64,000 nt of DNA from Eledone cirrhosa (taxonomy: Eukaryota), in NCBI GenBank assembly GCA_964016885.1, contig OZ024741.1, forward strand, positions 367,598,001-367,662,000, in the 5' to 3' direction. Both the position numbers and the translations under genes were made by a program. Positions 25,602 to 52,289 of this stretch are shown here, piece after piece (position 1 is the first letter of the stretch; every line of letters begins with the position of its first letter). Under the pieces are notes generated by a model. The model worked only from the letters and a program-made list of their open reading frames with translations, searched no databases and had not been told where the DNA came from.

Positions 25602-25603
<2 letters not shown>

Positions 25604-25845
25604 TTTTCTTTATTAACCACAAGGGTTCACATAAAGTAGACATTAAGGACAGTACAGGACAATACAGGACGGTAGAAATGGGCATTTCTGCGTGTAAAAA
25701 AACAGAGGTTGAAATAAAATAACAAAGAAAAATTCCCCAATAGGGGGGAGACTTCCAAGGGACATTTGTGGAGAAAGCCCATTAAAAGACCACAGTGGCC
25801 CTGACCACCAGGGCAAGTGCCCTCTCCCAGTTTTCCACCTTTAAT

Positions 25846-28800
25846 TTACAGACACATACTCAGAGAAGGCCCATTCATTCGGGCCATACTTGCTTCTCTC
25901 ACCCATCTTTCAACAAAATGCTGGGAAGAGAGCACTTCCCTCTCTACCCTGATTTTCCTTTTCAAATGAAATTTGAAAAAGTTAATCAGGGCATCACCGA
26001 AGAGGTAAGTGCTCGTCTTCAGCCCTTTCAAACGTGTCCACCATACTATCTCTTTCGCCATGGCCACCAGACAGATAAAAACTGCCTGCCCTTCCAGGCT
26101 AAAGGAAGGGGGCGGGGCAATCATCACGATGGACTCAGCTGATAGCTGGATCCGTCCTACACGTGACAGCAGGTGTTCGACATAAACCCACAAGTCAGCA
26201 ATGCTCGGACACTGGACGAGTGCGTGCAGGACGGTTTCGTCGCCCTGCGCGCATCTCGGACATGCCCGGCTGACGGCACCTCCATGCCTGTAGAGTTTAT
26301 CCCGAACTGGCAAAGCTCCTCGGTAGCACTGCCAGGCCAGGGATTTCTGGAAGTTGTCCATAGGCCCCGGCCCGAAAGTCCTTCCGAAGAGATTGGCTAG
26401 TTGATTTTCGTCGACGCCTAGAGTTTCTCCAAGTACGTCGTCGCTCTTCCCCTCCACTAATCCCCTATAGAACGCCGAGGTGGAGTTTCCACCGATCACA
26501 TTGCCCGATTGGTCGAGGGCTGTGAGCGCCTGAAGACATTCCAGTCTCCAAGCGCTCCCTCTCGGTCTTCGCTTGACCCAGGACTGCAGCTCCGTCAAGG
26601 AGACAAGCTGGGGAAAAACGTGTCTTGCAAACGGCGACCACACCTGATCACCGTCGAGGAAGAGGTGGAGATGTCGTAGCCTGAGCGCGTGTCTGCGCAT
26701 CATCAGCCACGGCATGCCCAGCCCTCCACGTAGCGGGTGTTGACAGCAGATGGACCGCCTGACCATCGGAGCGCGTCCCTTCCACAAGAAGCGAAAGAGC
26801 AAACGCTCCAGCGCAGTCAGGCGGGGCTTAGGACAAGGTACGACGGTCAGGCGGTAGTAGATGACGGATGCGATGTACGCATTCGCCACCTCCGCTCGAC
26901 CTTTCAGGGATAGCTTCCTCTCGGCCCATTTCTGGGTGAGAGAAGCCACCCTGCTCGTCACCTCGTCCCAGTTTTTGTCCGTCTGGAGGTCTGGACCGAA
27001 CCAGACCCCTAGCAATTTAACCGGTCCGTCCGCCCAGCGCCCGACGACGCTGTTGGACGGCATGGACCTGCCTCTCCAGGTGCCGAGCTGTAGGCCCACT
27101 GACTTTTCCTGGTTGATCATTGCTCCTGTCACCGCTTCGTATTCTCTTAGTGTAGTGCCGATCGCCTCGATGTGTTTGGCGTTCGACACCACTTCGGTGA
27201 CATCGTCGGCATATGCTGACACGGATCTTCCGCATCCTAGTTCGCGTGGGACCCCCCTCAACGTCTCCAGTTTGTGCAGTAATGGCTCGAGAGTCAATAC
27301 GTACAATAGGGACGAGAGGGGACATCCTTGGCAGACCGAGCGCATGATGTTGAACGGTTCCGAAAGGTGACCGTTCACTCTCACTACAGAGCAGATGTCG
27401 CTGTGCATGGCAGCGATCCAGCCTCTGAAGACGGGCCCAAAGCCAGCCGCCCTCAGGACTGCCGTTAGGTAACGATGGTCGACCCTATCGAAGGCTTTCG
27501 ACTGATCTAAATTGATCAAAGACCCACCCGTGCCAGGTTCCCTAGCTACCCTCTCTACGATGTATCGCATGAGGTGGAGGTTGTCGTGGATGGATCTGTC
27601 GGGAATGGCGCATGTCTGTGCCTCTCCCACCAGACCACCAACGACAAGCGCCAACCTCTTTGCTAGCACCTTGGCCAAAATCTTGAACTCTGTGTTTAGC
27701 AGAGTTATGGGCCTAAAATTATCTATGTTATCCCCTTGTTCGGGTCCTTTCTCAGCAGCGCCACCGCTCCTCGGCTCACAGAGCTGGGAATTCTCCCGTT
27801 CTGTTGCCAGTTGCAGTAGACGTCCGCCAAGAGGCCTCCGAACAAGTTTGGCATTTGTACGTAAAGTTCATAGGGCAGACCATCCAAACCAGGCGATTTA
27901 CCCCTTGTGCAACTAGTCATTGCATCCCGTACTTCAGCGGTTGTTATCGGCTTTTCGCAACACTCCGCCTCAGTGGCCGAAAGCCGCGGCAGTCCGTCGA
28001 GGTAGACACTAAAGTCCATCCCTCGATCCGGCCCGCCACTGCCCCCGAACAGTTGAGCGAAGTGTCGCTGAAAAGCTTCACACATTTCCCGGGATCGAGT
28101 AGCATGCGCCCGTCGTGGTCCACCAAAGACCGGATCGTGGCTTTGTTGCCACGACGCGCCTCCGCCACTCGGGCCCATTGAACGGCTTTCGTCCCCTCGT
28201 GTCTGAGAGCACGCACCCTAGCTCTGACAACGCAGCCTTCGTGCTTTGCATTGAAGAATTGGTCAAGGGCCAATTTCGCCGCAAGTACGTCAAGCGCCTC
28301 ATCTAATTTTCTAACTAATTCTCCCTCTGCTCTATTTTTCAGTTGCAGCAGACGTCCGCCAAGAGGCCTCCGAACAAGTTTGGCATTTGTACGTAAAGTT
28401 CATAGGGCAGACCATCCAAACCAGGCGATTTACCCCTTGTGCAACTAGTCATTGCATCCCGTACTTCAGCGGTTGTTATCGGCTTTTCGCAACACAGCCT
28501 TCGTGCTTTGCATTGAAGAATTGGTCAAGGGCCAATTTCGCCGCAAGTACGTCGGTCGCGATGCCTTTGCTGAGCGCCTCATCTAATTTTCTAACTAATT
28601 CTCCCTCTGCTCTATTTTTCTCTATTGCTAAAGTCTTACTAAACCTAATGGACTCTATTCTAATTGCTCTTTTCAGAGCAAACCACCACTTGTTGTTGAC
28701 GATGGCCCCCGTCAACGCCCGCTTAACTAGTTCGCTAATCCGGTCTCTGTAGGCCTTGCGCGCTGGTAAGGACGCGTTTAGCTTCCAGTAGCCGGGTCCT

Positions 28801-29525
28801 CGTCTATGAAGCCTATCTAAGTCAAGCACACAGATCACGAATTTGTGGTCCGTGTAGCTGACTATCTTGAATTGTGGACAGCCTATGCTAGACCTATCTA
28901 TTTCCCTACAAAATACTCTATCTAGATATGATCTGGATGACCCTATGCGATTTGTCCAAGTCCACATTGGTACATTCGGGAAATCCATTCGGTACCTGTC
29001 AGACAGTTCAAAACGTCTGAGCAGGTTGGTGAGACTCTTGCACCCTCCTTCCCTATCCACTAATCCCACACAATCCCAGCGTGCATCTAAGATCCCGTTC
29101 CAGTCGCCCACTAACACTAAAGAGCGGGACGTTCCAAGAAAGGTCTCCAGACGCCGGAAGAAATCAGGCCGCCCTGCTCCTGTCGGGGCATAGACGGCCA
29201 CTAACCTGAAAGCTTGCCCGTCTCCGCTGGTCACGTCCAGCACCACCAACTTACCTTCTGGGTCCAGGAAGATGGCCCGTATGGCAAGATCCAAACCTCT
29301 CCGAAAAAGCACAGCAACTCCTCCCCCCGATCCCGGACGGCTGGGAGATGCGTACACATCGTAGCCGCCGAAGATCGGTGCGAAAGCCTGTGCTTCGGAG
29401 ATTCTGGTCTCGCTGATGGCCACTACATCTATGTTTAGTGACCTGAGGTTGTTGAGCAGGTGGCCCTGCTTCCATGACGACCCCAAGCCACGCGCATTTA
29501 TGCTGCCTATTCTGAGTGAGGTCAT
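25846..29525 (-). pseudogene. ORF2 of copy 1 (APE endonuclease + RT + CCHC), broken by frameshifts and an internal duplication
   Basis: Pieces 28476-29525 (SINARGL, ISET, VGDWN, YLDR, TDH) and 25846-27678 (QGCPLS, YADD, CPRC..H..C) are near-identical to the intact ORF2 at 32021-35440. Confidence 0.92.
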
Positions 29526-29559
29526 GTTGAAAAGGAGTGGAAAAGATGGGAAAGACCAC

Positions 29560-31525
29560 TTACCTTACTTCTCGTAGGGGAAAGACGGTTTTTCCATCCT
29601 TTTCACTGCTTGTGGCCTCCTCAGGAAGGATGTCCTTATAAATCCTCCTGGAGAGTGCTTGTCGGAAGTCTCCGATGTCTTTTGGGAATTTTTGTTTTAG
29701 TGTCATGTACGTTTTCTGTGTGATGCGAGTGATTTGTATGTGTGGAGGTGGTGTGAATTTTGGGGTTGTTGTGTAGTCTTTTTCTGTGATGCTGGTGTTG
29801 TGTTGGATGTAGTGTAATAATTGCTTGTTGTTCAAATTTAATGCTGTGTAGTGTGTATCGTTTTGGTTGTTTTGTTTTGTTTGCGTTTGTTGTGGGTTTG
29901 TTTCTGTTTCGCATTTTGGTGACTTTTGTGGTGTAGGTGATGGTGGTGTTGGAGTTAATGATGGTGATGGTGTTGGTGTTGGTGTTTGGGTTGATGGGGT
30001 TGGTGGTGCTGGTGTGGATGGTGGCATATCTGTCCTAACTTTTTTGTTTCTTAGTTTATTTGTTTCCCTCTGTGTTTTGTTTTTGGAGGGAGAAGGAAGA
30101 GAATTTTTTTCTTTTTTGGTTTCTTTTTTTTTTTCGGATAGGTTTCCCACTCCTCGTCGTCACAATCTGTCTCCAGTTGTGATAGGCCGGGGAGTGGAAA
30201 ATCCTCCACAGCCGTTAGTTTTGGTTGTGGTGTGGTGGATGGTGTAGGCGCTGGTGCTAGTTCTGAAGCGTTGGGTGGTGGTGGTGTTGGTTTTGCTGGT
30301 GGTGGTAGTGGTGTTGGTTTTGCTACTGTTGCTGGGGTTGTTGCTGTTATAGTTGCTTCTGTTGTTGTTGCTACAGTTGTTGCTGCCATCTCTGCTACTG
30401 GTGGTGTTGATGGTTGTGTCACTGGGGTGGGTAGGAGAGGTGGCCTCAACCTTTTAGCCTGAGGGCAGAAAGCCCTTAGGTGGGTTCCTTCACCACAAAC
30501 GACACACCTAGGTCTTCTGCCCTCGACAATTACCGTGAGGTGGCTGCCGTCAGTGAGGTCTATTACCTCTGGGATCTCCTCAATGCTTTTTTGGTCCGCT
30601 TGGATCAGGAGCTCCATCCCAGATCCGGACCAGTTTTCCTGCTTTTATTTTGCTACTGCTATTATTTTCGTGTTGGCTTCGATGCCGGCGAGGACAGCCG
30701 CTATTAGCCAGGGAATTTCGATGGCCGGTGGAACGTGGGTCACCCTGATCTTTACGAGTCTCTGGCCACAATAGCTTGGGACGAGTGTGAGGTCGTCACT
30801 TTTTAATGGGGCCATGGAGTGTTCTCTAGCCTCCTCTGGTGTTTCAAAGAACACATCCACGGTTCCATACTTTTGCCCACGTCTGATGTGGGTTTTTCTT
30901 GCCCACACATGTCCCAAAGCTTTTTGGATTTGGGACTCGGATGCCCGTTCCACTCGGCGCGATTTTACATTTATTGTTCTATACGACACGGTGCACAGGC
31001 GCCGATGCTCCATTTTATTAGGTGGGGGGAGTGAGGCTGACCCTGTACCCATCTTTCTTTACCATTTGTTTGGCATTTTCTAAATCTTCTTGAGTTACGG
31101 TAAATGCTTCGAATTGTTTTGCTACGATGGCGAAACTGAGGGGGGGGGTTTATAATGTCATTGTTGTTGTTGTTGCTATCGTTAATATTAATTTTAGTTT
31201 CAGTTGTGGTGGTGGTGACGTCAGTCGTCTTTGGTGGGGAAGAGTCCATTTTTCTTGATTTCATTTCGACATCACGAGTTAATTTATTTTTTTCTTCTTT
31301 TGTTTCTGTTGTCGCGGTGGTGGTGGTGGTGCAGGCTTTAACACCTGCAGTCATTGGTAATGGCGGGAAATGAATGTCTGCCTGAGACAAATTTAAAATA
31401 TTGCTACTGCTTATATTTTTTTTTGTGTTGGCAAACGTAGTAACATTTACAATGGTGGTGTGGATGTGAGGTGTTATTTTGTGAGGAAGGCTTTCAGCTG
31501 CTTCGTGCAGAGGTGAAGTAGCCAT
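29560..31525 (-). pseudogene. ORF1 of copy 1 (gag-like, CCHC zinc knuckle), split at homopolymer runs
   Basis: Pieces 30971-31525, 30645-31052, 30051-30617 (CVVCGEGTHLRAFC), 29560-30150; central domain homologous to copy 2 ORF1. Confidence 0.8.
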
Positions 31526-31734
31526 TTTTTTTCAAAGAAATTTTTTGATAATAATAAAAGTTAAAATTTTGGGCACAAGGCCCCAATCTTTTTAGGTGTC
31601 CTTTTCGGAAAACAATGTATGTGTGGTTATAAACAGTTAACAATAAAATTTTCCATAAATGGCAATTTTTAAACAAACGGAAATAACAAACCTTTGCGGA
31701 GCTCACGATAATACGATTTCCTACGTAGGTCGCC

Positions 31735-31772
<38 letters not shown>

Positions 31773-32020
31773 TTTCTTTATTAACCACAAGGGTTTACAT
31801 AAAGTAGACATTAAGGACAGTGCAGGACAATGCAGGACGGTACAAATGGGCATTTCTGCGTGTAAAAAACAAAAACAGAGGATGTAACAAAAAATAACAA
31901 TGAAAAATTCCCCAATAGGGGGGAGACTTCGGAGGGACATTTGTGGAGAAAGCCCAGTAAAAAGCCACAATGACCCTGACCACCAAGGCAAGTGCCCTCT
32001 CCCAGTTTTCCACCTTTAAT

Positions 32021-35000
32021 TTACAGATATATGCTCAGAGTAGGCCCATTCACTCGGGCCATTCTTGCTTCTCTCACCCATCTTTCAACAAAATGCTGGG
32101 AAGAGAGCACTTCCCTCTCTACTCTGATTTTCCTTTTCAAATGAAATTTGAAAAAGTCAATCAGAGCATCACCGAAGAGGTAAGTGCTCGTCTTCAGCCC
32201 TTTCAAACGTGTCCACCATACTATCTCTTTCGCCATGGCCACCAGGCAGATAAAAACTGCCTGCCCTTCCCGGCTAAAGGAGGAGGGCGGGGCAATCCTC
32301 ACGATGGACTCAGATGATAGCCGGATCCGTCCTAAACGCGACAGCAGGTGTTCGACATAAACCCACAAGTCAGCAATTTTCGGACACTGGACGAGTGCGT
32401 GCAGGACGGTTTCGTCGCCCTGCGCGCATCTCGGACATGCCCGGCTGACGGCACCTCCATGCCTGTAGAGTTTATCCCGAACTGGCAAGGCTCCTCGGTA
32501 GCACTGCCAGGCCAGAGATTTCTGGAAGTTGTCCATAGGCCCTGGCCCGAAAGTTCTTCCGAAGAGATTGGCTAGTTGATTTTCGTCGACGCCTAGAGTT
32601 TCCCCAAGTACGTCGTCGCTCTTCCCCTCCACTAATCCTCTATAGAACGCCGAGGTGGAGTTTCCACCGATCACATTGCCCGATTGGTCGAGGGCTGTGA
32701 GCGCCTGAAGACATTCCAGTCTCCAGGCGCTCCCTCTCGGTCTTCGCTTGACCCAGGACTGCAGCTCCGTCAAGGAAACGAGCTGGGGAAACACGCGTCT
32801 AGCAAACGGCGACCACACCTGATCACCGTCGAGGAAGAGGTGGAGATGTCGTAGCCTGAGCGCGTGCCTGCGCATCATCAGCCACGGCATGCCCAGCCCT
32901 CCACGTAGCGGGTGTTGACAACAGATGGACCGCCTGACCATCGGAGCGCGTCCCTTCCACAAAAAGCGAAAGAGCAAACGCTCCAGCACAGTCAGGCGAG
33001 GCTTAGGACAAGGTACGACGGTCAGGTGGTAGCAGATGACGGACGCGATGTACGCGTTAGCCACCTCCGCTCGACCTTTCAGGGATAGCTTCCTCTCGGC
33101 CCATTTCTGGGTGAGAGAAGCCACCCTGCTCGTCACCTCGTCCCAGTTTTTGTCCGTCTGGAGGTCCGGACCGAACCAGACCCCTAGCAATTTAACCGGT
33201 CCGTCCGTCCAGCGTCCGACGACGCTGTTGGACGGCATGGACCTGCCTCTCCAGGTGCCGAGCTGCAGGCCCACTGACTTTTCCTGGTTGATCATTGCTC
33301 CTGTCACCGCTTCGTATTCTCTTAGTGTAGTGCCGATCGCCTCGATGTGTTTGGCGTTCGACACCACTACGGTGACATCGTCCGCATATGCTGATACGGA
33401 TCTTCCGCATCCTAGTTCGCGCGGGACCCCCCTCAACGTCTCCAGTTTGTGCAGTAATGGCTCGAGAGTCAATACGTACAAGAGGGACGAGAGGGGACAT
33501 CCTTGGCGGACCGAGCGCATGATGTTGAACGGTTCCGACAGGTGACCGTTCACTCTCACCACAGAGCAGATGTCGCTGTGCATGGCAGCGATCCAGCCTC
33601 TGAAGACGGGCCCAAAGTCAGCCGCCCTCAGGACTGCCGCTAGGTAACGATGGTCGACCCTATCAAAAGCTTTCGACTGATCTAAATTGATCAAGGACCC
33701 ACCCGTGCCAGGTTCCCTAGCTACCCTCTCTACGATGTATCGCATGAGGTGGAGGTTGTCGTGGATGGATCTGTCGGGAATGGCGCATGTCTGCGCCTCT
33801 CCCACCAGACCACCAACGACAAGCGCCAACCTCTTTGCTAGCACCTTGGCCAAAATCTTAAACTCTGTGTTTAGCAGAGTTATGGGCCGGAAATTTTCTA
33901 TGTTATCCCCCTTGTTCGGATCCTTTCTCAGCAGTGCCACCGCTCCTCGGCTCACAGAACTGGGAATTCTCCCGTTCTGTTGCCAGTTGCAGTAGACGTC
34001 CGCCAAGAGGCCTCCGAACAAGTCTGGCATCTGTACGTAAAGTTCATAGGGCAGACCATCCATACCAGGCGATTTACCCCTTGTGCAGCCAGTCATTGCC
34101 TCCCTTACTTCAGCGGCTGTTATCGGCTTTTCGCAACACTTCGCCTCAGTGGCCGAGAGCCGCGGCAGTCCGTCGAGGTAGACACTAAAGTCCATCCCTC
34201 TACCCGGCCCACCGCTGCCCCGGAACAGCTGAGCGAAGTGTCGCTGAAAAGCTTCACACATTTGCCCGGGATCGAGTAGCATGCGCCCGTCGTGGTCCAC
34301 CAAAGACCGGATCGTGGCTTTGTTGCCACGACGCGCCTCCGCCACTCGGGCCCATTGAACGGCTTTCGTCCCCTCGTGTCTGAGAGCACGCACCCTTGCT
34401 CTGACAACGCAGCCTTCGTGCTTTGCATTGAAGAATTGGTCAAGGGCCAATTTCGCCGCAAGCACGTCGGTCGCAATGCCTTTGCTAAGCGCCTCGTCTA
34501 ATTTTCTAACTAGTTCTCCCTCTGCTCTATTTTTCTCTATTGCTAAAGTCTTACTAAACCTAATGGACTCTATTCTAATTGCTCTTTTCAGAGCAAACCA
34601 CCACTTGTTGTTGACGATGGCCCCTGTCAACGCCCGCTTAACTAGTTCGCTAATCCGGTCTCTGTAGGCCTTGCGCGCTGGTAAGGACGCGTTTAGCTTC
34701 CAGTAGCCGGGTCCTCGTCTATGAAGCCTATCTAAGTCAAGCACACAGATCACGAATTTGTGGTCCGTGTAGCTGACTATCTTGAATTGTGGACAGCCTA
34801 TGCTAGACCTATCTATTTCCCTACAAAATACTCTATCTAGATATGATCTGGATGACCCTATGCGGTTTGTCCAAGTCCACATTGGCACATTCGGGAAATC
34901 CAATCGGTACCTGTCAGACAGTTCAAAACGCCTGAGCAGGTTGGTGAGGCTCTTGCACCCTCCACCCCTATCCGCTAATCCCACACAGTCCCAGCGTGCA

Positions 35001-35440
35001 TCTAAGATCCCGTTCCAGTCGCCCACTAACACTAAAGAGCGCGACGTTCCAAGAAAGGTCTCCAGACGCCGGAAGAAATCAGGCCGCCCTGCTCCTGTCG
35101 GGGCATAGACGGCCACTAGCCTGAAAGCTTGCCCGTCTCCGCTGGTCACGTCCAGCACCACCAGCTTACCCTCTGGGTCCAGGAAGATGGCCCGTATGGC
35201 GAGATCCAAACCTCTCCGAAAAAGTACAGCAACTCCTCCACCGGATCCAGGACGGCTGGGAGATGCGTACACATCGTAGCCGCCGAAGATCGGTGCGAAG
35301 GCCCGTGCTTCGGAGATTCTGGTCTCGCTGATGGCCACTACATCTATGTTTAGTGACCTGAGGTCGTTGAGCAGGTGACCCTGCTTCCATGACGACCCCA
35401 AGCCACGCGCATTTATGCTGCCTATTCTGAGTGAGGTCAT
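32021..35440 (-). CDS. LINE ORF2 polyprotein, 1139 aa: APE endonuclease, reverse transcriptase, C-terminal CCHC
   Basis: NARGL/SET/GDWN/LDR/TDH endonuclease motifs; KSPGMDG, RPITLLN, DQSKAFD, RQGCPLS, YADD; CPRC-ETVLH-C. Confidence 0.97.
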   Translation of the reverse strand: MTSLRIGSINARGLGSSWKQGHLLNDLRSLNIDVVAISETRISEARAFAPIFGGYDVYASPSRPGSGGGVAVLFRRGLDLAIRAIFLDPEGKLVVLDVTSGDGQAFRLVAVYAPTGAGRPDFFRRLETFLGTSRSLVLVGDWNGILDARWDCVGLADRGGGCKSLTNLLRRFELSDRYRLDFPNVPMWTWTNRIGSSRSYLDRVFCREIDRSSIGCPQFKIVSYTDHKFVICVLDLDRLHRRGPGYWKLNASLPARKAYRDRISELVKRALTGAIVNNKWWFALKRAIRIESIRFSKTLAIEKNRAEGELVRKLDEALSKGIATDVLAAKLALDQFFNAKHEGCVVRARVRALRHEGTKAVQWARVAEARRGNKATIRSLVDHDGRMLLDPGQMCEAFQRHFAQLFRGSGGPGRGMDFSVYLDGLPRLSATEAKCCEKPITAAEVREAMTGCTRGKSPGMDGLPYELYVQMPDLFGGLLADVYCNWQQNGRIPSSVSRGAVALLRKDPNKGDNIENFRPITLLNTEFKILAKVLAKRLALVVGGLVGEAQTCAIPDRSIHDNLHLMRYIVERVAREPGTGGSLINLDQSKAFDRVDHRYLAAVLRAADFGPVFRGWIAAMHSDICSVVRVNGHLSEPFNIMRSVRQGCPLSSLLYVLTLEPLLHKLETLRGVPRELGCGRSVSAYADDVTVVVSNAKHIEAIGTTLREYEAVTGAMINQEKSVGLQLGTWRGRSMPSNSVVGRWTDGPVKLLGVWFGPDLQTDKNWDEVTSRVASLTQKWAERKLSLKGRAEVANAYIASVICYHLTVVPCPKPRLTVLERLLFRFLWKGRAPMVRRSICCQHPLRGGLGMPWLMMRRHALRLRHLHLFLDGDQVWSPFARRVFPQLVSLTELQSWVKRRPRGSAWRLECLQALTALDQSGNVIGGNSTSAFYRGLVEGKSDDVLGETLGVDENQLANLFGRTFGPGPMDNFQKSLAWQCYRGALPVRDKLYRHGGAVSRACPRCAQGDETVLHALVQCPKIADLWVYVEHLLSRLGRIRLSSESIVRIAPPSSFSREGQAVFICLVAMAKEIVWWTRLKGLKTSTYLFGDALIDFFKFHLKRKIRVEREVLSSQHFVERWVREARMARVNGPTLSIYL

Positions 35441-35783
35441 GTTTAAAATAGAGTGGAAAAGATGGGAAAGACCACTTACCGTACTTTTGGTAGAGGAGGG
35501 ATGGTTTTTACATCCCTTTTCACTTGATCGTCTGGTGAAGGGACCGTTGAATCGTCCCTTCGGCTGGTCGTCGGCTCTTCTAAGAGAATGTCTGAGTATA
35601 CTCTTCGATTGATGGTTCCTCCTAGGTCCCTGAAATCACCAACTGCGTTGGGGAATTTCGTTTTAATATTTGTGTATTGTTTCTGTGCTATTTTTAGCAG
35701 TCTTATGTTAGTTGGCGTTTTGATTGGTGCTGGTATTATGTAGTTGTGTTGTGAAATGTCTGTGTGTTCAATTATGTAAGTCA

Positions 35784-37574
35784 TTAGTTGTGTGTATTTA
35801 TTGCCGTGCATTTGTTTTTCTGGGGGTGGGGTCTGGTTCTGCTATTTTCTTGTCGTTGTTGCTGGGTGTGTGTGTTTTGTTGTGTTTGCGATGTTGGTGC
35901 TTGTGGTGGTGGTGTTGAAGGTGTTGTTGGCGGTGGGGTTGTCGCCGGTGGTGATGGTGGTGCTAGTGTGGGTGGTGATGGTGTTGGTGGTATTGCTGCT
36001 GTGAGTCTCTTTGCAGTAGACTTTACCCTTTTTTCATTTCTTTCCTCCCTTTTCAAAGGCGACGATGCGCTGCTTCTGCGTTTGTGCCTTCTTACGACCT
36101 TTTGCCATCCCTCTCCCACCTCACACTCCATGTCTGATTCTGTGAGGTCGGGGAGGGGTACCAGCTCCACTCTTTCACTTGTTGTTGTTGGTGATGTTTG
36201 CACTGGAGTCTCTGTTGCAGCTGCATTTGGTATTGCTGTTGTTGTTGTTGTTGTTAATACTTCCACTGCTGCTGCTGTTTTTGATTTCTGTGGCGTGGGT
36301 ATGGGTGCCACGGACCTATCGTTCCTGGTTGCCGCTTGTCCTGTTGCTGGTAGCCGTGGAGCCGGTTTCGGAAGGAGGGGGGTTTTCTCCTTTCTCAGGG
36401 TCTTCTCGTTGCAGAAGGCCCTGAGGTGAGTCTTCGATCCACAGCGAAAGCATTTCGGGCGTTTGCCCTCAACACTTATGGGCAGTTGAGTGACGTTATC
36501 GAAGTCTATCACATCTGGGATAGCTTCGATGCACTCCTGGTTGGTTTGGATTAACATCTCAATGGAGATGCCGACCCAATCTTCTCTTACTTTTTTCTGT
36601 ACTTGCAGTACAGTTGTTTTGTCCTCGATTCCGACGAGGACAGACGCGGCCAGCCAAGAAGGGGCCATTCCGGGGGGGACGTGGGTCAGTTTGACCCTCA
36701 CAATTTTTTGCCCGCAGTAGGAGGGCACCAACACCATTTCCTCGCTCCTTAGGGTCACTACGGATTGAGCCTTTGCCTCCTGGGGTGTGGCAAAAAGTAC
36801 GTCTACGGTGGCATATTTCTTGCCTCGGGTGATGTGTGTTTTCCCCTGCCACACAGACCCCAAGGCTTTTTGTATTTGAGCCTCTGTGGCTCTTTCCACC
36901 CTACGGGATTTTGTACTTACTGTACGGTACGTGACCGTACAGTGCTGTTGGGTTTCGAAAAATTTTTCCGCTGCCTTGCAGATTGCTCGGTGTCCTGTTT
37001 TTGTCACCATCTTCTTCGCTTCCTCTAATTCCTCATTTGTTATAAGGATTGTTTCCAGGTTCTTCGCGATACCTGCAAACGAGATTGGTTTTTCTTTGCT
37101 GCTGTTGTTGTTGTTGTCGTCAGAGCTGCTGTTACTTTTGTTGTTGCTGCAGGTACTACGACTACTGCCTCCGCCGCTGTTGCTGTGGTTGTTGTTGGTG
37201 TTGCTGCTTCTAATGCTGTTGTTGTTTATGCTGCTGGTGATGCTGTTGCGGCTGCTACTGTTGTTTTCATTGTCACTGTTGCTGTTGTTATTACGGCTGC
37301 TACTGCTATTATTCCTGACGTCAGACGAATGAAGTGGGTTTTCGTATTTCCTGCACACCTGTTTCGTCGTTGTCGTCGTCGTCGTGGAGAAACCTTGCAC
37401 GCTTTGCACGAGACTTTTCTTTTCTTTCGTCGCTTGCGAAAGAGAAGGGAGGGAGAGAGACACATTTAAAGAAGGGAGGGAGAGAGACAATCTGCTCTCT
37501 GCTGTAGTGATGATTGAGGAAGAAGAAGACGGAATGAGTGGGAGTGACCTATGAAAATTCTTTTTCGTAGCCAT
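35784..37574 (-). CDS. LINE ORF1 protein, 596 aa, CCHC zinc knuckle, S/N- and P/T-rich linkers; probable continuation in 35476-35811
   Basis: CFRCGSKTHLRAFC; lies upstream of ORF2; homologous to copy 1 ORF1 core. Confidence 0.85.
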   Translation of the reverse strand: MATKKNFHRSLPLIPSSSSSIITTAESRLSLSLPSLNVSLSLPSLSQATKEKKSLVQSVQGFSTTTTTTTKQVCRKYENPLHSSDVRNNSSSSRNNNSNSDNENNSSSRNSITSSINNNSIRSSNTNNNHSNSGGGSSRSTCSNNKSNSSSDDNNNNSSKEKPISFAGIAKNLETILITNEELEEAKKMVTKTGHRAICKAAEKFFETQQHCTVTYRTVSTKSRRVERATEAQIQKALGSVWQGKTHITRGKKYATVDVLFATPQEAKAQSVVTLRSEEMVLVPSYCGQKIVRVKLTHVPPGMAPSWLAASVLVGIEDKTTVLQVQKKVREDWVGISIEMLIQTNQECIEAIPDVIDFDNVTQLPISVEGKRPKCFRCGSKTHLRAFCNEKTLRKEKTPLLPKPAPRLPATGQAATRNDRSVAPIPTPQKSKTAAAVEVLTTTTTTAIPNAAATETPVQTSPTTTSERVELVPLPDLTESDMECEVGEGWQKVVRRHKRRSSASSPLKREERNEKRVKSTAKRLTAAIPPTPSPPTLAPPSPPATTPPPTTPSTPPPQAPTSQTQQNTHTQQQRQENSRTRPHPQKNKCTAINTHN

Positions 37575-37815
37575 GTTGGTTTTTTTTGTTTAAAATAAAT
37601 ATTGGGCACAAAACCCCAATAAGCAGTTATTTAACCCCGAAGGGCCAAATAACGGGCAGAAAGACCCCTCTCACGAGGAGGAGGGTGTTTTTGTCTACAA
37701 GTTCGTTAAAGTTTTAAACAATTTACAATTGTTATAGCGTTCAAAATTTACAATACCTTACAGAGCCGAGCCTCCGTCAACCATAGCAATCAATAATAAT
37801 AATAATAATAATAAT

Positions 37816-37889: not shown

Positions 37890-37890
<1 letters not shown>
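37816..37890 (-). mobile_element. ~75-bp 3'-terminal Tx1 stub in (AAT)n
   Basis: Matches 31771-31845; (AAT)n on both sides. Confidence 0.9.
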
Positions 37891-37934
<44 letters not shown>

Positions 37935-37935
37935 T

Positions 37936-38084
37936 GTTTCTACGTTTGGCACAAGGCCAGCATTACTGGTACTTTATTTTATTGACCCCGTAAGGCGAGA
38001 TTTGAACTCAGAATAGCAAGGGCCGTAACTCTATACGTCAAAGCATGGCGTCCGACCCTCTACTGATACTGCCAATCCACCGCC
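37936..38084 (-). mobile_element. tRNA-derived SINE with (ATT)n tail inside the LINE array
   Basis: ggcggtggattggcagtatcagtagaggg...gagttcaaatctcgcc...aaagtaccagtaatgctggccttgtgcc...agaaacaattatt. Confidence 0.8.
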
Positions 38085-39135: not shown

Positions 39136-40370
39136 CTTTCTTTATTAACCACAAGGGTTGACACAAAGTATAACATTAAGGACAACACAGGACAATATAA
39201 GACGGTATAAATGGGCATTTCTGCGTGTAAAAAAAACAAAATCAGAGTATGTGACAAAAAAAAAAGAAAACAATAAAAAATTCCCCAATATGGGCGAGAC
39301 TTCTGAGGGTCGCTCGTGGAGAAAGCCCACAAAAAAGCCACGGTTTCCCTGACCGCTAGGGCAAGTGCCCTCTTCCAGTTTTCCTCCTACAATGCTACAG
39401 GCACACGTTCAGGGTAGGCCCATTCACACGGGCCATTCTTGCCTCTCCCACCCACCTTTCAACAAACTGGCTGGAAGGCAGCACTTCCCTCTCCACCCTG
39501 ATTTTTCTTTTCAGGTGAAACCGGAAAAAGTTAATGAGGGCGTCACTGAAGAGGAAAGTACCCGTCTTCAACCCTTTCAGACGTATCCACCGTACGATCT
39601 CTGTTACCATGGCCACCAGGCAGATAAAAACTGCCTGCCCTTCCCGGCTAAAGGAAGGTGGAGAGGCAATCCTCACGATGAACTCAGCTGATAGCCGGAT
39701 ACGCCCTACACGCGACAGCAGGTGTTCGACATAAACCCACAAGTCAACAATGCTCGGACACTGGACGAGTGCGTGCAGGAGGGTTTCGTCACCCTGCGCG
39801 CATCTCGCACAGGCCCGGATGACGGCACTTCCATGCCTGTAGAATTTATCCAGATCTAGCAAGGCTCCTCGGTAGCACTGCCAGGCTAGGGAATTCTGGA
39901 AGTTGTCCATGGGCCCCGGCCCGAAAGTTCTCCCGAACAGATTGGCTAGTTGGTTTTCGTCGACGCCTAGAGTCTCCCCAAGTACGTCGTCGCTCTTCCC
40001 CTCCACTAATCCTCTATAGAACGCCAAGGTGTAGTTTCCACCGATCACATTGCTCGACTGGTCGAGGGCTGTGAGTGCCTGAAGACATTCCAGTCTCCAA
40101 TCGCTTACTCTCGGTCTTCGCTTGACCCAGGACTGCAGCTCCATCAAGGAGACAAGCTGGGGAAACACGCGTCTAGCAAAGGGCAACCACACCTGATCAC
40201 CGTCGAAGAAGAGGTGGAGATGCCGTAGCCTGAGCGCATGTCTGCGCATCATCAGCCACGGCATGCCCAGCCCCCCACGTAGCGGGTGTTGACAGCAGAT
40301 GGACCGCCTGGCCATCGGAGCACGTCCCTTCCACAAAAAGCGAAAGAGCAAACGCTCCAGCGCAGTCAGA
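39135..40370 (-). mobile_element. 5'-truncated Tx1 copy (1.2 kb)
   Basis: ORF 39395-40402 matches the ORF2 C-terminus; 5' break abuts a SINE tail at 40371. Confidence 0.92.
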
Positions 40371-40490
40371 TATTGTTTCTGATTTAGGCACAAGACCAAC
40401 AATTTGATGGGAGGGGGGAGGAATGAGTCGATTAAATCGACCCAAGTGTGTGTCTGGTACTTTATTTTAACGACCCCGTAAGGATGAAGA
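40371..40490 (-). mobile_element. 3' half of tRNA-derived SINE
   Basis: tattgtttctgatttaggcacaag...tcgattaaatcgaccc...ggtactttatttt..gaccccgtaaggatgaa. Confidence 0.7.
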
Positions 40491-43396: not shown

Positions 43397-43464
<68 letters not shown>

Positions 43465-45015
43465 TGTTTCTTTATTAACCACAGGGGCACAAAAGAAGGG
43501 GACAAATACAAAGGGGGAAGTTTACATACAATAAAAACGTAAAATATTATCACAAATGTAATTTAAAAATTAGTCGATTTTCCCCAATAGGGGGAGACAG
43601 TTCGTATGGGTAACACATACCCCCGAAAAAATGTGCAACCCTCATCTCCAGGAGTACGAAGAGTTTGTACTCCTTTCCTCTCCTCCTCCTTTTCCTCAAC
43701 CTACAGGCTGATATAGAGAGAAGGCCCATTCACTCGGGCCATTCTCGCCACTTTCACCCACCTTTCATAAAACTTGCTGGGGTACAGCACCTCTCTCTCC
43801 ATCCTGATTCTTCTTCCAAAGTGGTATTTGGAAAAAAGAATCAGTTGTTGGCCGGAGAGAAAGGTGTCTGACCTCAGCCTTTTCAACCTTGTCCACCATA
43901 CAACCTCTTTCGCCATAGCTATCACACAAAGGAAAACCGCCTCTCCTTCGTTTTTGAAGGAGGGTGGCGGTTTGATCATGACAATGGACTCGGTGGTCAA
44001 CCGGATTGGTCCCACTCGCGACAATAGTCGTTCTACATAGCCCCACAGGTCAGTGACGCCCGGGCAGTGTATGAATGCGTGCGCGACGGTTTCTTCGTCT
44101 CGCACGCACCTCGGACAGATCTTTTTTGCAGGGTCCCTGCTCGGGCGCCCATGTCTGTAGAGCTTGTCTCGAACTGGTAGAGCTCCTCGGTAGCACTGCC
44201 AGGCCAGGGACTTTTGGAAGTTGTCCATCGGTCCCGGGCGGAAGGTCCTACCGAACAGACTGGCCAGTTCGTCTTCCTCTACGCCCAGAGTTTCACCGAG
44301 CAGGTCGCACTTGAATGACGAAGTGGAGTCTCCACTGATCGCCGGGTCCGCCTGCCAGAGGGCTGTGAGCGCCTGAGCACATTCGATGTGCCAGTCGCCC
44401 ATTTTCCTCGGTCTTTGCTTGACCCAGGACTGCAGCTCGGTCAGCGAGACGAGTCGTGGGAAGGCTCGCCTCACGAACGGAGCCAACACCGGTTGTCCGG
44501 TGAGGAATACGTAGAGATGCCGAAGCCTGAGCGCGTGTTTGCGCATCGTCAGCCACGGCATCCCCAGCCCTCCGTTAGAAGGGTGTTGGCAGCAGATGGA
44601 TCTTCTTACCAAAGGAGCCCGCCTCTTCCAAAGGAATCGGAAGAGGGCGCGCTCCATTTTGGCGAGCGTTTTGGCTGGACAAGGCACGACGGTCAAGCGG
44701 TAGTAGATGGCGGACGCTATAAAAGTGTTCGCCACCTCCGCTCGACCTTTCAAGGATAGTTTGCACTCGGCCCACTTCTGGGTGAGTGCAAACACCTTGG
44801 CCGTCACTTCGTTCCAGTTCTTCTCCACCTGGAGGTCCGGACCAAACCAGACCCCGAGCAGCTTTACCGGTCCTTCCGTCCAGCGTCCGACGACGCCATC
44901 GGAAGGCATCGGTCTGCCTCTCCACGATCCGAGTTGCAAACCGATGGACTTGTCCCGGTTCAGCTTCGCTCCTGTGAGACTTTCGTATTCCTTTAGTAAG
45001 GTGCCGACTTTCAAG

Positions 45016-45016
<1 letters not shown>
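43465..45016 (-). mobile_element. 5'-truncated Tx1-clade LINE, second family, in (GATA)n
   Basis: ORF 43701-45014 is homologous to but diverged from the ORF2 C-half (GRWTEGPVKLLGVWFGPDL, CPRC..ETVAH..C); (GATA)n at 43398-43463 and 45017-45090. Confidence 0.92.
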
Positions 45017-45090
<74 letters not shown>

Positions 45091-45402
45091 TTCTTTATTT
45101 GCCAGAAGGGCGTACAAGAAATGAGACATTACAAGACGTAACGGTGGGAGTTTTACATGAAATCGTATAAACTTTAACGTTAATAAATAACAATAAACTA
45201 TATATTAAAAAATTAATAATCGAAATCCCCAGTAGGGAGGAACGTTACTGCGGAGTTGTTTTACACCCCGTAGATAGAACAACCCTCAAAACCAGGAACA
45301 CGTTTTGTAGGTGTTCCAGTCTTCCCTCTTTTTGTCTGCCTCAACCTACAGGTTTATATACAGAGAAGGCCCATTCACTCGGGCCATTTTCGCCACATTC
45401 AA
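45091..45402 (-). mobile_element. Short 3' fragment of a GATA-associated Tx1 subfamily
   Basis: ORF end ...MARVNGPSLYINL* (agagaaggcccattcactcgggccatt); followed by atag repeats at ~45406-45422. Confidence 0.85.
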
Positions 45403-45824
45403 ATAAATAGATAGATAGATAGGGAGGGAGAAGGATACTGAACTGGGACCCAAGTTGTCGACCTCCTCGCAGTGGGCTCTGGAAATTGTTTACTGATTTC
45501 TGGTCTCTATCAGACAAACGATAACAACCTGAGACAACAACAGTCTCATACGCAAGAAGAAATATTGGACTGATACTTTATTTATCAACACCGAAAGGAT
45601 GAAAAGCAAAGTCGATTTTTCGGTAGGATTTGAACACATGCTCAGTGATCCAGGTCACATATGAAGACATTAGAGAAGCAATTATATCCTATATACTCAT
45701 GCGGCGTGACCGACGTCTTACAAAGACATTGCACTAGGTTGATCTACATAGAACAAACTGAATGAGAAAGAAAAGATTGAAGGTCAATAATCATGGAGAC
45801 AACAACAGCGAAGACGTCGATGGT

Positions 45825-48800
45825 CATGATGATGATGACGATGATGATGGTGATGGTGGTGGTAGTGGTAGTGGTGGTGGTGGTGGTGGTGGTGGTGGTG
45901 TGGTGGTGGTGGGGGTGGGGGTGGTGTTGGTGGTGGTGTTGGTGGTGTTGGAGCTGGTGGTAGTGGTGGTGGTGGTAGTGGTGGTGGAGCTGATAGTAGT
46001 GGTGGTGGTGGTGGTGGTGGTGGTGTTGTGGTGGTGGTGGGGGTGTTGGTGGTGTTGGTGGTGTTGGAGCTGGTGGTAGTGGTGGTGGTGGTGTTGGAGC
46101 TGGTAGTAGTGGTGGTGTTGGAGTTGGTAGTAGTGGTGGTGGTGGTGTTGGAGCTGGTAGTAGTGGTGGTGGTGGTGTTGGAGCTGGTAGTAGTGGTGGT
46201 GTTGGAGTTGGTAGTAGTGGTGGTGGTGGTGTTGGAGCTGGTAGTAGTGGTGGTGGTGGTGTTGAAGCTGGTAGTAGTGGTGGTGGTGGTGGTGTTGGAG
46301 TTGGTAGTAGTGGTGGTGGTGGTGGTGGTGGTGGTGGAGCTGATAGTAGTGGTGGTGGTGGTGGTGGTGGTGGTGGTGGTGGTGGTGGTGGTGGTGGTGG
46401 TGGAGCTGATAGTAGTGGTGGTGGTGGTGGTGGTTGTGGTGTTGGAGCTGGTAGTAGTGGTGGTGGTGTGTTGGAGCTGGTAGTAGTGGTGGTGGTGGTG
46501 GTGGTGGTGGTGGTGGTGGTGGAGCTGATAGTAGTAGTGGTGGTGGTGGTGGTGGTGGTGGTGGTGGTGGTGGTGGTGGTGGTGGAGCTGATAGTAGTGG
46601 TGGTGGTGGTGGTGGTGGTGGTGTTGGAGCTGGTAGTAGTGGTGGTGGTGTGTTGGAGCTGGTAGTAGTGGTGGGGGGGGGGAGCTGGTAGTAGTGGTGG
46701 TGGTGGTGGTGGTAGTGGTGGTGTTGGAGCTTGTAGTAGTGGTGGTGGTGGTGGTGGTGGTGGTGGAGCTGGTAGTAGTGGTGGTGATAGTGTTGGTAGT
46801 AGTGGTGGTGGTGTTGGAGCTGCTAGTAGTGGTGGTGGTGGTGGTGGAGCTGGTAGTAGTGGTGGTGGTGGTGTTGGAGCTGGTAGTAGTGGTGGTGGTG
46901 GTGTTGGAGCTGGTAGTAGTGGTGGTGGTGGTGTTGGAGTTGGTAGTAGTGGTGGTGGTGGTGTTGGAGTTGGTAGTAGTGGTGGTGGTGGTGTTGGAGC
47001 TGGTAGTAGTGGTGGTGTTGGAGTTGGTAGTAGTGGTGGTGGTGGTGTTGGAGCTGGTAGTAGTGGTGGTGGTGGTGTTGAAGCTGGTAGTAGTGGTGGT
47101 GGTGGTGGTGTTGGAGTTGGTAGTAGTGGTGGTGGTGGTGGTGGTGGTGGTGGTGGAGCTGATAGTAGTGGTGGTGGTGGTGGTGGTGGTGGTGGTGGTG
47201 GTGTTGGAGCTGGTAGTAGTGGTGGTTTGGAGCTGGTAGTAGTGGTGGTGGTAGTGGTGGTGGTGGTGTTGGAGTTGATAGAGGTGGTGGTGGTGGTGGT
47301 GGTGGTGTTGGAGCTGGTAGAGGTGGTGGTGGTAGTGGTGGTGATGGTGGTGGTGGTGTTGGAGTTGGTAGTAGTGGTGGTGTTGGAGTTGGTAGTAGTG
47401 GTGGTGTTGGAGCTGGTAGTAGTGGTGGTGTTGGAGTTGGTAGTAGTGGTGGTGTTGGAGTTGGTAGTAGTAGTGGTGTTGGAGCTGGTAGTAGTGGTGG
47501 TGGTAGTGGTGGTGGTGGTGTTGGAGTTGGTAGTAGTGGTAGTGGTGGTGATGGTGGTGGTGGTGTTGGAGTTGGTAGTAGTGGTGGTGTTGGAGCTGGT
47601 AGTAGTGGTGGTGGTGGTGTTGGAGTTGGTAGTAGTGGTGGTGTTGGAGTTGGTAGTAGTGGTGGTGGTAGTGGTGGTGGTAGTAGTGGTGGTGGTGGTG
47701 GTAGTGTTGGTGGTGGTGGTGGTGGTGGTGGTGGTGTTGGTAGTAGTGGTGGTGGTGTTGGTGCTGGTAGTAGTGGTGGTGGTAGTGGTGGTGGTGGTGG
47801 TGGTGGTGGTGGTGTTGGTGGTGTTGGATTTGGTGGTAGTGGTGGTGGTGGTGGTGGTGGTGGTGGTGGTGTTGGAGTTGGTAGTAGTGGTGGTGGTGGT
47901 GGTGGAGTTGATAGTAGTGGTGGTGGTGGTGGTGGTGGTGGAGTTGATAGTAGTGGTGGTGGTGGTGGTGTTGGTAGTAGTGGTGGTGGTGGTGTTGGAG
48001 ATGGTAGTGGTGGTGGTGGTGGTGGTGGTGGAGTTGATAGTGGTGGTGGTGGTGGTGGTGGTGTTGGTGGTGTTGGAACTGGTGGTGGTGGTGGTGGTGG
48101 TGGTGGTGGTGGTGTTGGAGCTGGTAGTAGTGGTGGTGGTGGTGGTGGTGGTGGTGGTGGTGGTGGTGGTGGTGGTGGTGGTGTTGGAGCTGGTAGAAGT
48201 GATGGTGGTGGTGGTGGTGGTGTTGGTGGTGTTGGAGCTGGTAGTAGTGGTGGTGATGGTGGTGGTGGTGGTGGTGGTGGTGGTGGTGGTGTTGGAGCTG
48301 GTAGTAGTGGTGGTGGTGGTGTTGGAGTTGATAGTAGTGGTGGTGGTGGTGGTGGTGGTGGTGTTGGAGCTGGTAGTAGTGGTGGTGGTGGTGGTGATGG
48401 TGGTGTTGGAGCTGGTAGTAGTGGTGGTGGTGGTGGTGGTGGTGGTGGTGTTGGAGCTGGTAGTAGTGGTGGTGGTGTTGGTGATGGTGCAGTTGATAGT
48501 AGTGGTGGTGGTGGTGGTGGTGGTGGAGTTGATAGTAGTGGTGGTGGTGGTGGTGGTGGTGTTGGTAGTAGTGGTGGTGTTGGAGCTGGTAGTAGTGGTG
48601 GTGGTGGTGTTGGAGTTGGTAGTATTGGAGGTGGTGTTGGAGTTGATAGTGGTGGTGGTGGTGGTGGTGGTGGTGGTGTTGGAGCTGGTAGTAGTGGTGG
48701 TGGTGGTGGTGGTGGTGGTGGTGTTGGAGTTGATAGTAGTGGTGGTGGGAGTGGTGGTGGTGTTGGAGCTGGTAGTAGTGGTGATGGTGGTGGTGGTGGT

Positions 48801-51800
48801 GGTGGTGTTGGAGCTGGTAGTAGTGGTGATGGTGGTGTTGGAGTTGGTAGTAGTGGTGGTGGTGGTGTTGGAGCTGGTAGTAGTGGTGGTGGTGGTGTTG
48901 GAGTTGGTAGTAGTGGTGGTGTTGGAGTTGGTAGTAGTGGTGGTGTTGGAGTTGGTAGTAGTGGTGGTGGTGGTGTTGGAGTTGGTAGTAGTGGTGGTGG
49001 TGGTGTTGGAGTTGGTAGTAGTGGTGGTGTTGGAGTTGGTAGTAGTGTAGTGGTGGTGTTGGAGTTGGTAGTAGTGGTGGTGGTGGTGTTGGAGTTGGTA
49101 GTAGTGGTGGTGGTGGTGTTGGAGTTGGTAGTAGTGGTGGTGGTGGTGTTGGAGTTGGTAGTAGTGGTGGTGGTGGTGTTGGAGCTGGTAGTAGTGGTGG
49201 TGTTGGTGTTGGTAGTAGTAGTGGTGGTGGTGGTGGAGTTGATAGTAGTGGTGGTGGTGGTGGTGGTGGTGGTGTAGTTGATAGTAGTGGTGGTGGTGGT
49301 GGTGTTGGTAGTAGTGGTGGTGGTGGTGTTGGAGCTGGTAGTAGTGGTGGTGTTGGAGTTGGTAGTATTGGTGGTGGTGGTGTTGGAGTTGGTAGTAGTG
49401 GTGGTGGTGGTGTTGGAGTTGGTAGTAGTGGTGGCGGTGGTGTTGGAGTTGGTAGTAGTGGTGGTGGTGGTGGTGGAGCTGGTAGTAGTGGTGGTGTTGG
49501 AGTTGGTAGTAGTGGTGGTGGTGGTGTTGGAGTTGGTAGTAGTGGTGGTGGTGGTGTTGGAGCTGGTAGTAGTGGTGGTGGTGGTGGTGGAGTTGATAGT
49601 AGTGGTGGTGGTGGTGGTGTAGTTGATAGTAGTGGTGGTGGTGGTGGTGTTGGTAGTAGTGGTGGTGGTGGTGTTGGAGTTGGTAGTAGTGGTGGTGGTG
49701 GTGTTGGAGCTGGTAGTAGTGGTGGTGGTGGTGTTGGAGCTGGTAGTAGTGGTGGTGTTGGAGTTGGTAGTAGTGGTGTTGGTGGTGTTGGAGCTGGTAG
49801 TAGTGGTGGTGGTGGTGTTGGAGTTGGTAGTAGTCGTGGTGGTGGTGTTGGAGTTGGTAGTAGTGGTGGTGGTGGTGTTGGAGTTGGTAGTAGTGGTGGT
49901 GGTGGTGTTGGAGCTGGTAGTAGTGGTGGTGGTGGTGTTGGAGCTGGTAGTAGTGGTGGTGTTGGAGTTGGTAGTAGTGGTGGTGGTGGTGGTGGAGTTG
50001 ATAGTAGTGGTGGTGGTGGTGGTGGTGGTGTAGTTGATAGTAGTGGTGGTGGTGGTGGTGTTGGAGATGGTAGTAGTGGTGGTTGTGGAGTTGATAGTAG
50101 TGGTGGTGGTGTTGGAGTTGGTAGTAGTGGTGGGGGGGGGAGCTGGTAGTAGTGGTGGTGGTGGTGTTGGAGCAGGTAGTAGTGGTGGTGTTGGAGTTGG
50201 TAGTAGTGGTGGTGGTGGTGGTGTTGGAGCTGGTAGTAGTGGTGGTGGTGGTGGTGGTGGTGTTGGAGCTGGTAGTAGTGGTGGTGTTGGAGTTGGTAGT
50301 AGTGGTGATGGTGGTGTTGGAGTTGGTAGTAGTGGTGGTGGTGGTGTTGGAGCTGGTAGTAGTGGTGGTGGTGGTGTTGGAGCTGGTAGTAGTGGTGGTG
50401 TTGGAGTTGGTAGTTGTGGTGGTGGTGGTGTTGGAGTTGGTAGTAGTGGTGGTGTTGGAGTTGGTAGTAGTGGTGGTGGTGGTGGTGTTGGAGCTGGTAG
50501 TATTGGTGGTGTTGGAGTTGGTAGTAGTGGTGGTGGTGGTGGTGTTAGAGTTGGTAGTAGTGGTGGTGGTAGTGTTGGAGCTGGCAGTAGTGGTGGTGTT
50601 GGAGTTGGTAGTAGTGGTGGTGGTGGTGTTGGAGCTGGTAGTAGTGGTGGTGGTGGTGGTGTTGGAGCTGGTAGTTGTGGTGGTGTTGGAGTTGGTAGTA
50701 GTGGTGGTGGTGGTGGTGTTGGAGCTGGTAGTAGTGGTGGTGTTGGAGTTGGTAGTAGTGGTGGTGGTGGTGTTGGAGTTGGTAGTAGTGGTGGTGGTGG
50801 TGTTGGAGCTGGTAGTAGTGGTGGTGGTGGTGTTGGAGCTGGTAGTAGTGGTAGTGGTGGTGGTGGTGTTGGAGTTGGTAGTAGTGGTGGTGGTGGTGTT
50901 GGAGCTGGTAGTAGTGGTGGTGGTGGTGGTGGTGTTGGAGCTGGTAGTAGTGGTGGTGTTGGAGTTGGTAGTAGTGGTGGTGGTGGTGGTGTTGGAGCTG
51001 GTAGTAGTGGTGGTGTTGGAGTTGGTAGTAGTGGTGGTGGTGGTGTTGGAGTTGGTAGTAGTGGTGGTGGTGGTGTTGGGGCTGGTAGTAGTGGTGGTGT
51101 TGGAGTTGGTAGTAGTGGTGGTGGTGGTGGTGTTGGAGCTGGTAGTAGTGGAGGTGGTGGTGTTGGAGCTGGTAGTAGTGGTGGTGGTGGTGGTGTTGGA
51201 GCTGGTAGTAGTGGTGGTGGTGGAGTTGGTAGTAGTGTTGGTGGTGGTGGTGTTGGAGCTGGTAGTAGTGGTGGTGTTGGAGTTGGTAGTTGTGGTGGTG
51301 GTGGTGTTGGAGTTGGTAGTAGTGGTGGTGGTGGTGTTGGAGCTGGTAGTAGTGGTGGTGGTGGTGTTGGAGCTGGTAGTAGTGGTAGTGGTGGTGGTGG
51401 TGTTGGAGTTGGTAGTAGTGGTGGTGGTGGTGTTGGAGCTGGTAGTAGTGGTGGTGGTGGTGGTGTTGGAGCTGGTAGTAGTGGTGGTGTTGGAGTTGGT
51501 AGTAGTGGTGGTGGTGGTGGTGTTGGAGCTGGTAGTAGTGGTGGTGTTGGAGTTGGTAGTAGTGGTGGTGGTGGTGTTGGAGTTGGTAGTAGTGGTGGTG
51601 GTGGTGTTGGGGCTAGTAGTAGTGGTGGTGTTGGAGTTGGTAGTAGTGTTGGTGGTGGTGGTGTTGGAGCTGGTAGTAGTGGTGGTGGTGGTGGTGTTGG
51701 AGTTGGTAGTAGTGTTGGTGGTGGTGGTGTTGGAGTTGGTAGTAGTGGTGGTGGTGGTGGTGTTGGAGTTGGTAGTAGTGTTGGTGGTGGTGGTGTTGGA

Positions 51801-52258: not shown

Positions 52259-52289
<31 letters not shown>

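Follow-up and report, generated by a model that had tools for sequence, protein, structure and literature searches.

Two LINE fragments, which we call copies A and B, lie in tandem among GATA repeats in the window (the whole 64-kb stretch of DNA analysed here), and related elements in the same window lie in AAT repeats. The locus raises the question of whether a microsatellite is the landing site of such an element or its product and, if a landing site, which part of the element chooses it. We confirmed that copies A and B are 5'-truncated L1/Tx1-type LINE fragments on the minus strand, stacked in (GATA)n (Table 1). As originally predicted from the DNA, they are relatives of the AAT family: copy A is 73-74% identical in nucleotides to the AAT-family ORF2 of the window and 67% identical in amino acids over the C-terminal 438 residues. 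The similar 3' ends, also predicted, are AATAAAGAAA-CA-(TATC)n in copy A and AATAAAGAAA-TC-(TATC)n in copy B. Copy A matches natural GA copies at 95-96% identity and copy B matches subfamily GB at 86%; the two share 68% identity over 317 common columns and so belong to different subfamilies. The endonuclease is absent from both, and Pfam recognized only zf-RVT in copy A.

GATA had further been said to bound the copies on every side, including the break at 45016. The three arrays are present, and are the only GATA runs of at least three units in the window ((GATA)17 at 43397-43464, (GATA)18 at 45016-45087 and (GATA)3 at 45410-45421), but the 45016 junction is not independent evidence because the array there doubles as the 3' flank of copy B and 3-5 non-matching bases, likely untemplated, intervene. 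Since the middle array is copy B's 3' flank, the window holds one independent 5' junction, that of copy B.

Table 1. Coordinates of the GATA-flanked copies and of the AAT-family elements in the window.
Feature	Position	Strand
Second full-length AAT-family copy, with internal rearrangement and differing ORF1/5' region	25603..31734	-
Full-length AAT-family (A1) LINE for comparison: ORF1 with CCHC knuckle; ORF2 with APE endonuclease, RT, zf-RVT	31771..37791	-
(TATC)17/(GATA)17 array bordering the 3' end of copy A (target)	43397..43464	-
Copy A 3' UTR, ending in AATAAAGAAA plus dinucleotide CA	43465..43700	-
Copy A, C-terminal ~437 aa of ORF2 (RT end, zf-RVT), open frame; subfamily GA, 5'-truncated, without endonuclease	43701..45010	-
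3-5 bases at copy A 5' break, matching neither family nor repeat	45011..45015	-
(TATC)18 array, copy B 3' flank and copy A landing site	45016..45087	-
Copy B, last ORF2 codons and 3' UTR; subfamily GB, 5'-truncated, about 310 bases	45088..45401	-
(TATC)3 and two degenerate TATT units at copy B 5' break, unique DNA beyond	45402..45421	-

The two AAT-family elements of the window are 96% identical in ORF2 and differ in 5' UTR and ORF1 (55% amino acid identity over the core), which represents an exchange of 5' modules. Both 5' types were found repeatedly elsewhere in the genome. A duplication or rearrangement at 28292-28489 breaks ORF2 in the copy that begins at 25603; Pfam domains PF03372, PF00078 and PF13966 were assigned to the AAT ORF2 of the window. 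Sequences at 37890-38084 and 40370-40490, which we take to be SINE-like repeats, sit beside (AAT)n on the outer edges of the AAT stacks, and their tails may serve as targets. The window also holds a tandem repeat at 2439-3811 (period 468, 2.9 copies, 99% identical) and a 13-kb GGT/TGG-rich satellite at 45800-58800 (GC skew about 0.95) that gives long spurious open frames.

We searched the genome (3.0 Gb, 1796 contigs) for exact matches to the 3' end of one subfamily per class, using a 24-base GA end and a 27-base A1 end. The GA end matched 6217 times and its reversed control 0 times. TATCTA stood two bases on at 5233 of these ends (84%), and ATTATT followed within 0-4 bases at none of them. 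The A1 end matched 8915 times; ATTATT came next in 7768 cases (87%) and TATCTA in 1. The flanks of the GATA and AAT clades are strongly reciprocal at both element ends, with near-zero crossover over 15,132 counted ends. A genome-wide flank table had been proposed as the place where the prediction could fail, through either family being common in the other's repeat or in unique DNA, and reciprocal specificity withstood it. A (TC)n or (TTC)n target of the Kibi/Koshi type was not seen at GA ends, TCTCTC following 59 of the 6217. At the 5' junction of L292, a copy of subfamily GD lies within (TATC)5 directly next to (ATT)4, having taken its own repeat where both adjoin.

A repeat beside a LINE could also be nothing but a tail made by the element, with flanks that arise from tandem stacking and not from targeting; tails of upstream copies do form many 5' flanks, the 45016 junction among them. 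We collected 246 element ends (the window and loci L001-L231), a pooled set that includes loci picked for odd flanks, and mapped both junctions for 172. The other 74 were dropped because the locus held no 5' end, because there was no match, or as duplicates. At the 5' break, at least two TATC units were present in 75 of 124 GATA-clade copies and ATTATT in 0, and ATTATT was present in 24 of 48 AAT-clade copies and two TATC units in 0. Among truncated, non-nested copies, the break fell in TATC for 48 of 87 GATA elements and in ATT for 0 (random 20-mers, 0.2%); for AAT elements it fell in ATT in 11 of 34 and in TATC in 0 (random 20-mers, 1.2%). Positionally unselected samples alone gave the own repeat at 9 of 15 GATA and 5 of 12 AAT breaks. 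The own repeat is missing at the mapped break in 39 of the 87 truncated GATA copies and 23 of the 34 truncated AAT copies; many of these breaks are internal deletions or later rearrangements, which explains part of the misses. PMC4494074 calls a LINE microsatellite-specific when a single repeat accounts for over 20% of its flanks. The present elements exceed this share at both ends and in register, with 55% (GATA) and 32% (AAT) of non-nested 5' breaks in the own repeat.

Duplications anchored by non-repeat bases were found in 31 of 124 GATA-clade copies (shuffled mean 12.5, maximum 18). Sixteen of the 31 start exactly two bases past AATAAAGAAA with TATC, span 10-20 bp and show no added unit. 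A strict duplication test was passed by 8 of 112 GATA-clade copies (shuffled, 0-3), five of them exact, at the two-base offset and 12-18 bp long. The evidence for duplication is thin in the AAT clade, where 3 of 38 copies passed the strict test against 0-2 after shuffling, and a test that allowed one mismatch was weak (25 of 84; shuffled mean 12.6, maximum 20). Occasional insertions into AT-rich unique DNA carry 17-18 bp duplications (L013, L176), and no TATC unit was added at AT-rich non-repeat sites (L013, L009). Taken together, the 5' breaks in the own repeat and the target duplications indicate that the repeat is a pre-existing target, to which usually no unit is added. That tails and stacking alone produced the flanks is therefore very hard to credit: non-nested breaks remain in each family's own repeat, and the duplications take in repeat units together with unique bases.

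Recovery of a full-length GATA copy had been suggested as a check. Such copies were found, and they align along the whole ORF2 architecture of APE endonuclease and RT, over the entire AAT ORF2. The elements have the features of APE-type LINEs (N-terminal APE endonuclease and RT, 5' truncation, fixed 3' end, variable target duplication) and of the L1/Tx1 group (an endonuclease nearest that of L1, a C-terminal zinc knuckle, and a CCHC knuckle in ORF1); their endonuclease and zinc knuckles point to membership at the level of that group. The picture of two families was right as to their reciprocal targets and too simple otherwise, since each is a clade of several subfamilies, with at least three on AAT (A1-A3) and at least five on GATA (GA-GE) among the loci. 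Unbroken frames of 1166-1204 codons occur at dozens of places, and both classes have young members. Subfamily GD (L292-L311) has many unbroken 1166-codon ORF2 frames, and seven of its proteins are 99.2-99.7% identical. A protein from Argonauta hians is 64% identical to GA, which makes an octopod host likely, and the nearest outgroups are 39-43% identical.

The GATA users form a single clade (100/100). A3 grouped with them at a bootstrap of 87 in two trees, and a third tree (12 rows) gave no firm order among A3, A1+A2 and the GATA users and did not reject AAT monophyly (p-AU 0.416); in these trees the rows were projected onto the A1 protein, so that A1 branches are shortened, and the outgroups are long. 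AAT as the ancestral state was considered and set aside, the two trees speaking for it through A3 and the third lending no support. One single-copy chimera (L197:5607-8501 into L005, about 307162600-307167300) consists of (ATT)19, an AAT 5' half (ORF1 and the start of the endonuclease) and a GATA 3' half ending in TATC, and arose by template switch or later recombination. No propagated recombinant was found among the loci screened.

Between the classes, endonucleases are 58-63% identical overall (intact A1 is at 58% to GD and 62% to GC), and RTs are 75-76% identical. This gap is not specific to the switch, because the endonuclease falls below the RT within the GATA clade too (79% versus 88%); A1 and A2 show the opposite order (90% versus 83%). 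The TATC target is constant across GATA subfamilies despite endonuclease identities of 62-83%. Strictly diagnostic columns number 8 of 212 in the endonuclease (S8C, S62C, R63Q, K92R, D157P, N184T, I194S, D235N), 8 of 324 in the RT and 17 of 376 in the C-terminus, with GD represented by one copy. An excess or burst of diagnostic changes specific to the endonuclease was not seen, the density being comparable to other domains. At position 152 the four GATA rows shown have Tyr and the AAT rows Cys or Arg; this position aligns near L1 Arg155, which was tested for DNA contact in PMC1950540. In the alignment, I194 falls at the tip of the L1 hairpin. Positions 152 and 194 and the diagnostic endonuclease changes are candidate determinants. 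The beta-hairpin, which had been singled out for comparison, yields one such candidate and otherwise hardly separates the classes. It reads W-TNRIGSS-RSYLD in AAT subfamilies and W-[S/T/A]NRSG[T/S/Q]S-RSYLD in GATA subfamilies, with equal length (by alignment, also that of L1) and essentially one differing position, and there are exceptions at L041, a GATA copy with the AAT-type Ile, and L119, with Asn.

The GA endonuclease is predicted to adopt the L1 endonuclease fold (pLDDT 95 from an 86-row alignment and 41 from the single sequence; TM 0.82-0.87), and in the fold comparison L1 endonucleases took ranks 1-12 and TRAS1 rank 42. Target class tracks the endonuclease clade and, equally, the whole-ORF2 clade and the 3' UTR. 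Because endonuclease, RT and 3' UTR are inherited together, this correlation does not assign the cause. The proposal that diverged endonucleases recognize different microsatellites thus holds in that the repeats are reciprocal targets; that the endonuclease is responsible is something we infer.

Insertions beside other repeats bear on how the site is read. We examined 30 of the 59 (TC)n-flanked GATA-clade copies, 19 with mapped 5' ends. TATC lies within 35 bases upstream in 15 of the 19, versus 12 of 54 and 41 of 214 (TC)n tract starts, and at least three TATC units stand just 5', with (TC)n directly 3', in 11 of 19, versus 3 of 54 and 2 of 214. Several of these copies have no matching duplication, and some sites may be altered TATC sites. 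At TGTC arrays, 48 of 56 insertions begin at a TATC unit; upstream, TATC is most often found and TGTC in some (30 of the 56 examined, of which 23 had a mapped 5' end). Units upstream of the nick are thus enriched yet unable to pair with the primer, which favours recognition across the nick, although later mutation of the repeat could mimic the enrichment. Strays into (TC)n and TGTC arrays founded no visible lineage. A (GACA)n target class was rejected: it comes down to the same 56 ends, scattered over GATA subfamilies, in families with the same 3' motif. A third target class was also rejected after a search with a generic 3' motif and a non-T third target base, in which 100 listed of 877 ends were class variants or single strays; this search is blind to TGT/TCT starts and to ends with extra bases. 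A genome search with an outgroup endonuclease, in which 124 of 34714 candidates were scored, gave no new family among the 20 examined (16 GD, 4 A1). Among the 100 listed atypical 3' junctions are some where the element end is briefly duplicated (GAAA-GAAA, CAT-CAT) and a few with an A run behind TAT, features that suggest slippage at priming and rare polyadenylated templates. The AAT loci L108, L151 and L103 have odd 5' flanks, in which the repeat runs the other way or which consist of (TTC)n or (ACT)n.

Any account of targeting has to accommodate reciprocal flanks, a 3' end fixed at AATAAAGAAA plus two bases, duplications of 10-20 bp from the first repeat unit, self-nesting, and a single GATA clade. 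On balance we favour the reading that this clade inserts in register into (TATC)n/(GATA)n and its sisters into (ATT)n/(AAT)n, with the choice made mainly by diverged APE endonucleases. We infer that the endonuclease leads: it would nick the GATA strand within the array, reading the units to either side of the cut. Reverse transcription would start exactly at the dinucleotide, probably aided by a short read-through repeat on the RNA, and a second nick 10-20 bp further would create the duplication. Any RNA tail would take its sequence from wherever the element had landed, so that altering the endonuclease would by itself suffice for a change of target. Full-length copies would join at their 5' end via repeat homology. 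In 19 of 20 such copies the 5' end abuts the repeat in register; unique bases are not seen duplicated, short 3' arrays included, and joining probably proceeds through repeat on the 5' end of the transcript. rDNA-specific elements join their 5' ends in a similar way, via sequence carried by the transcript. An endonuclease swap between SART1 and TRAS1 is reported to change specificity (PMC7265360), and hairpin grafts on the L1 endonuclease, made between distant enzymes, to alter specificity but not transfer it modularly, with RNA-target pairing named as a further filter (PMC1950540). We consider it doubtful that a few endonuclease surface changes (Ile to Ser at the hairpin tip, Ser-Arg to Cys-Gln in the 62-63 loop, Cys/Arg152 to Tyr, Asp157 to Pro) suffice to move an APE LINE from a microsatellite of 3-base units to one of 4-base units, read-through then rewriting the RNA tail automatically. 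If they do, intact young ORF2s of both classes would hold a minimal natural code for LINE retargeting.

The choice could instead lie with the RNA. Endonucleases would then nick AT-rich repeats loosely, a read-through repeat on the RNA would select the nicks that prime, and insertion of a master copy into the other repeat would have switched the target. Polyadenylation cleavage usually occurs 10-30 nt from AATAAA, and this signal lies 6 bases before the repeat, so usual cleavage would leave the RNA with a few units. Nearly all insertions match at the first unit, as at the TGTC arrays; the in-register 5' ends of full-length copies suggest that transcripts carry the repeat, and the endonuclease holds no excess of diagnostic sites. 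No units were added at most duplication-defined sites, however, units upstream of the nick are enriched, TAT gives way to an A run at a few junctions, and the 100 listed atypical ends include no derived lineage that uses TC, TGTC or another repeat. We regard RNA-guided choice as possible but rather unlikely. ORF2p might also set specificity through surfaces other than its endonuclease (the C-terminal domain or the linker), or the whole RNP might sense the shape of the array or its chromatin; we find this improbable. The C-terminal region does have the highest diagnostic share, and L1 endonuclease readout is described as favouring structure over sequence (PMC1950540), but the single-base register of insertion within the unit fits readout at the level of the nuclease, as does the SART1/TRAS1 precedent (PMC7265360).

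Related LINEs on different microsatellites are already known, and the GATA target is a new variant. Like the present clades, Kibi on (TC)n and Koshi on (TTC)n in teleosts and the crocodilian Tx1-1_Crp group on (TTCC)n/(TTTC)n are described as APE-type Tx1/L1-clade LINEs whose related lineages use different microsatellites (PMC4494074, PMC3812793); the likeness to Kibi and Koshi is one of targeting habit and is drawn from their descriptions. The present elements differ in their AT-rich targets, (GATA)n and (AAT)n, in their mollusc-type host, and in that both classes reach thousands of copies in one genome. Those two papers list Kibi, Koshi, crocodilian Tx1, Waldo, Mino and Dong, and GATA is absent from the lists. 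Waldo and Mino, related elements on ACAY and AC (PMC3812793), belong to other clades than ours. As described, SART1 and TRAS1 share with our LINEs a tandem-repeat target and a fixed register, need several units, and change specificity with the endonuclease; they differ in belonging to the R1 clade, in being poly(A)-tailed, and in using the same repeat in opposite orientations, where we find two repeats and typical junctions without poly(A). Dong is an R4-clade element with a restriction-like nuclease. Its (TAA)n target is the repeat of the AAT clade, but it belongs to a different clade, and PMC3812793 groups it with the APE types. The human L1 endonuclease (1vyb, 7n8s; hairpin grafts 2v0r/2v0s) has the fold predicted for the GATA-family enzyme, at about 20% identity; unlike the present clades, human L1 prefers T tracts loosely and requires poly(A). 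Thirteen recently active L1-Tx1 families are reported from Octopus vulgaris, in a main text in which the word 'target' is absent (PMC13282606). We found no report of a GATA-targeting Tx1, or of a microsatellite-targeting Tx1 in octopus, in titles and abstract openings; Repbase, Dfam, Kojima and Fujiwara 2004 or paper supplements may hold the families.

How APE-type LINEs pick microsatellites was called not well understood in 2013 (PMC3812793). The chief value of the GATA and AAT clades is as a clean test pair: endonucleases of 58-63% identity, near-zero crossover and unbroken ORF2s on both sides make a swap tractable, and selection by protein separable from selection by RNA tail. In the genome itself, thousands of insertions of both classes sit in its common marker repeats.
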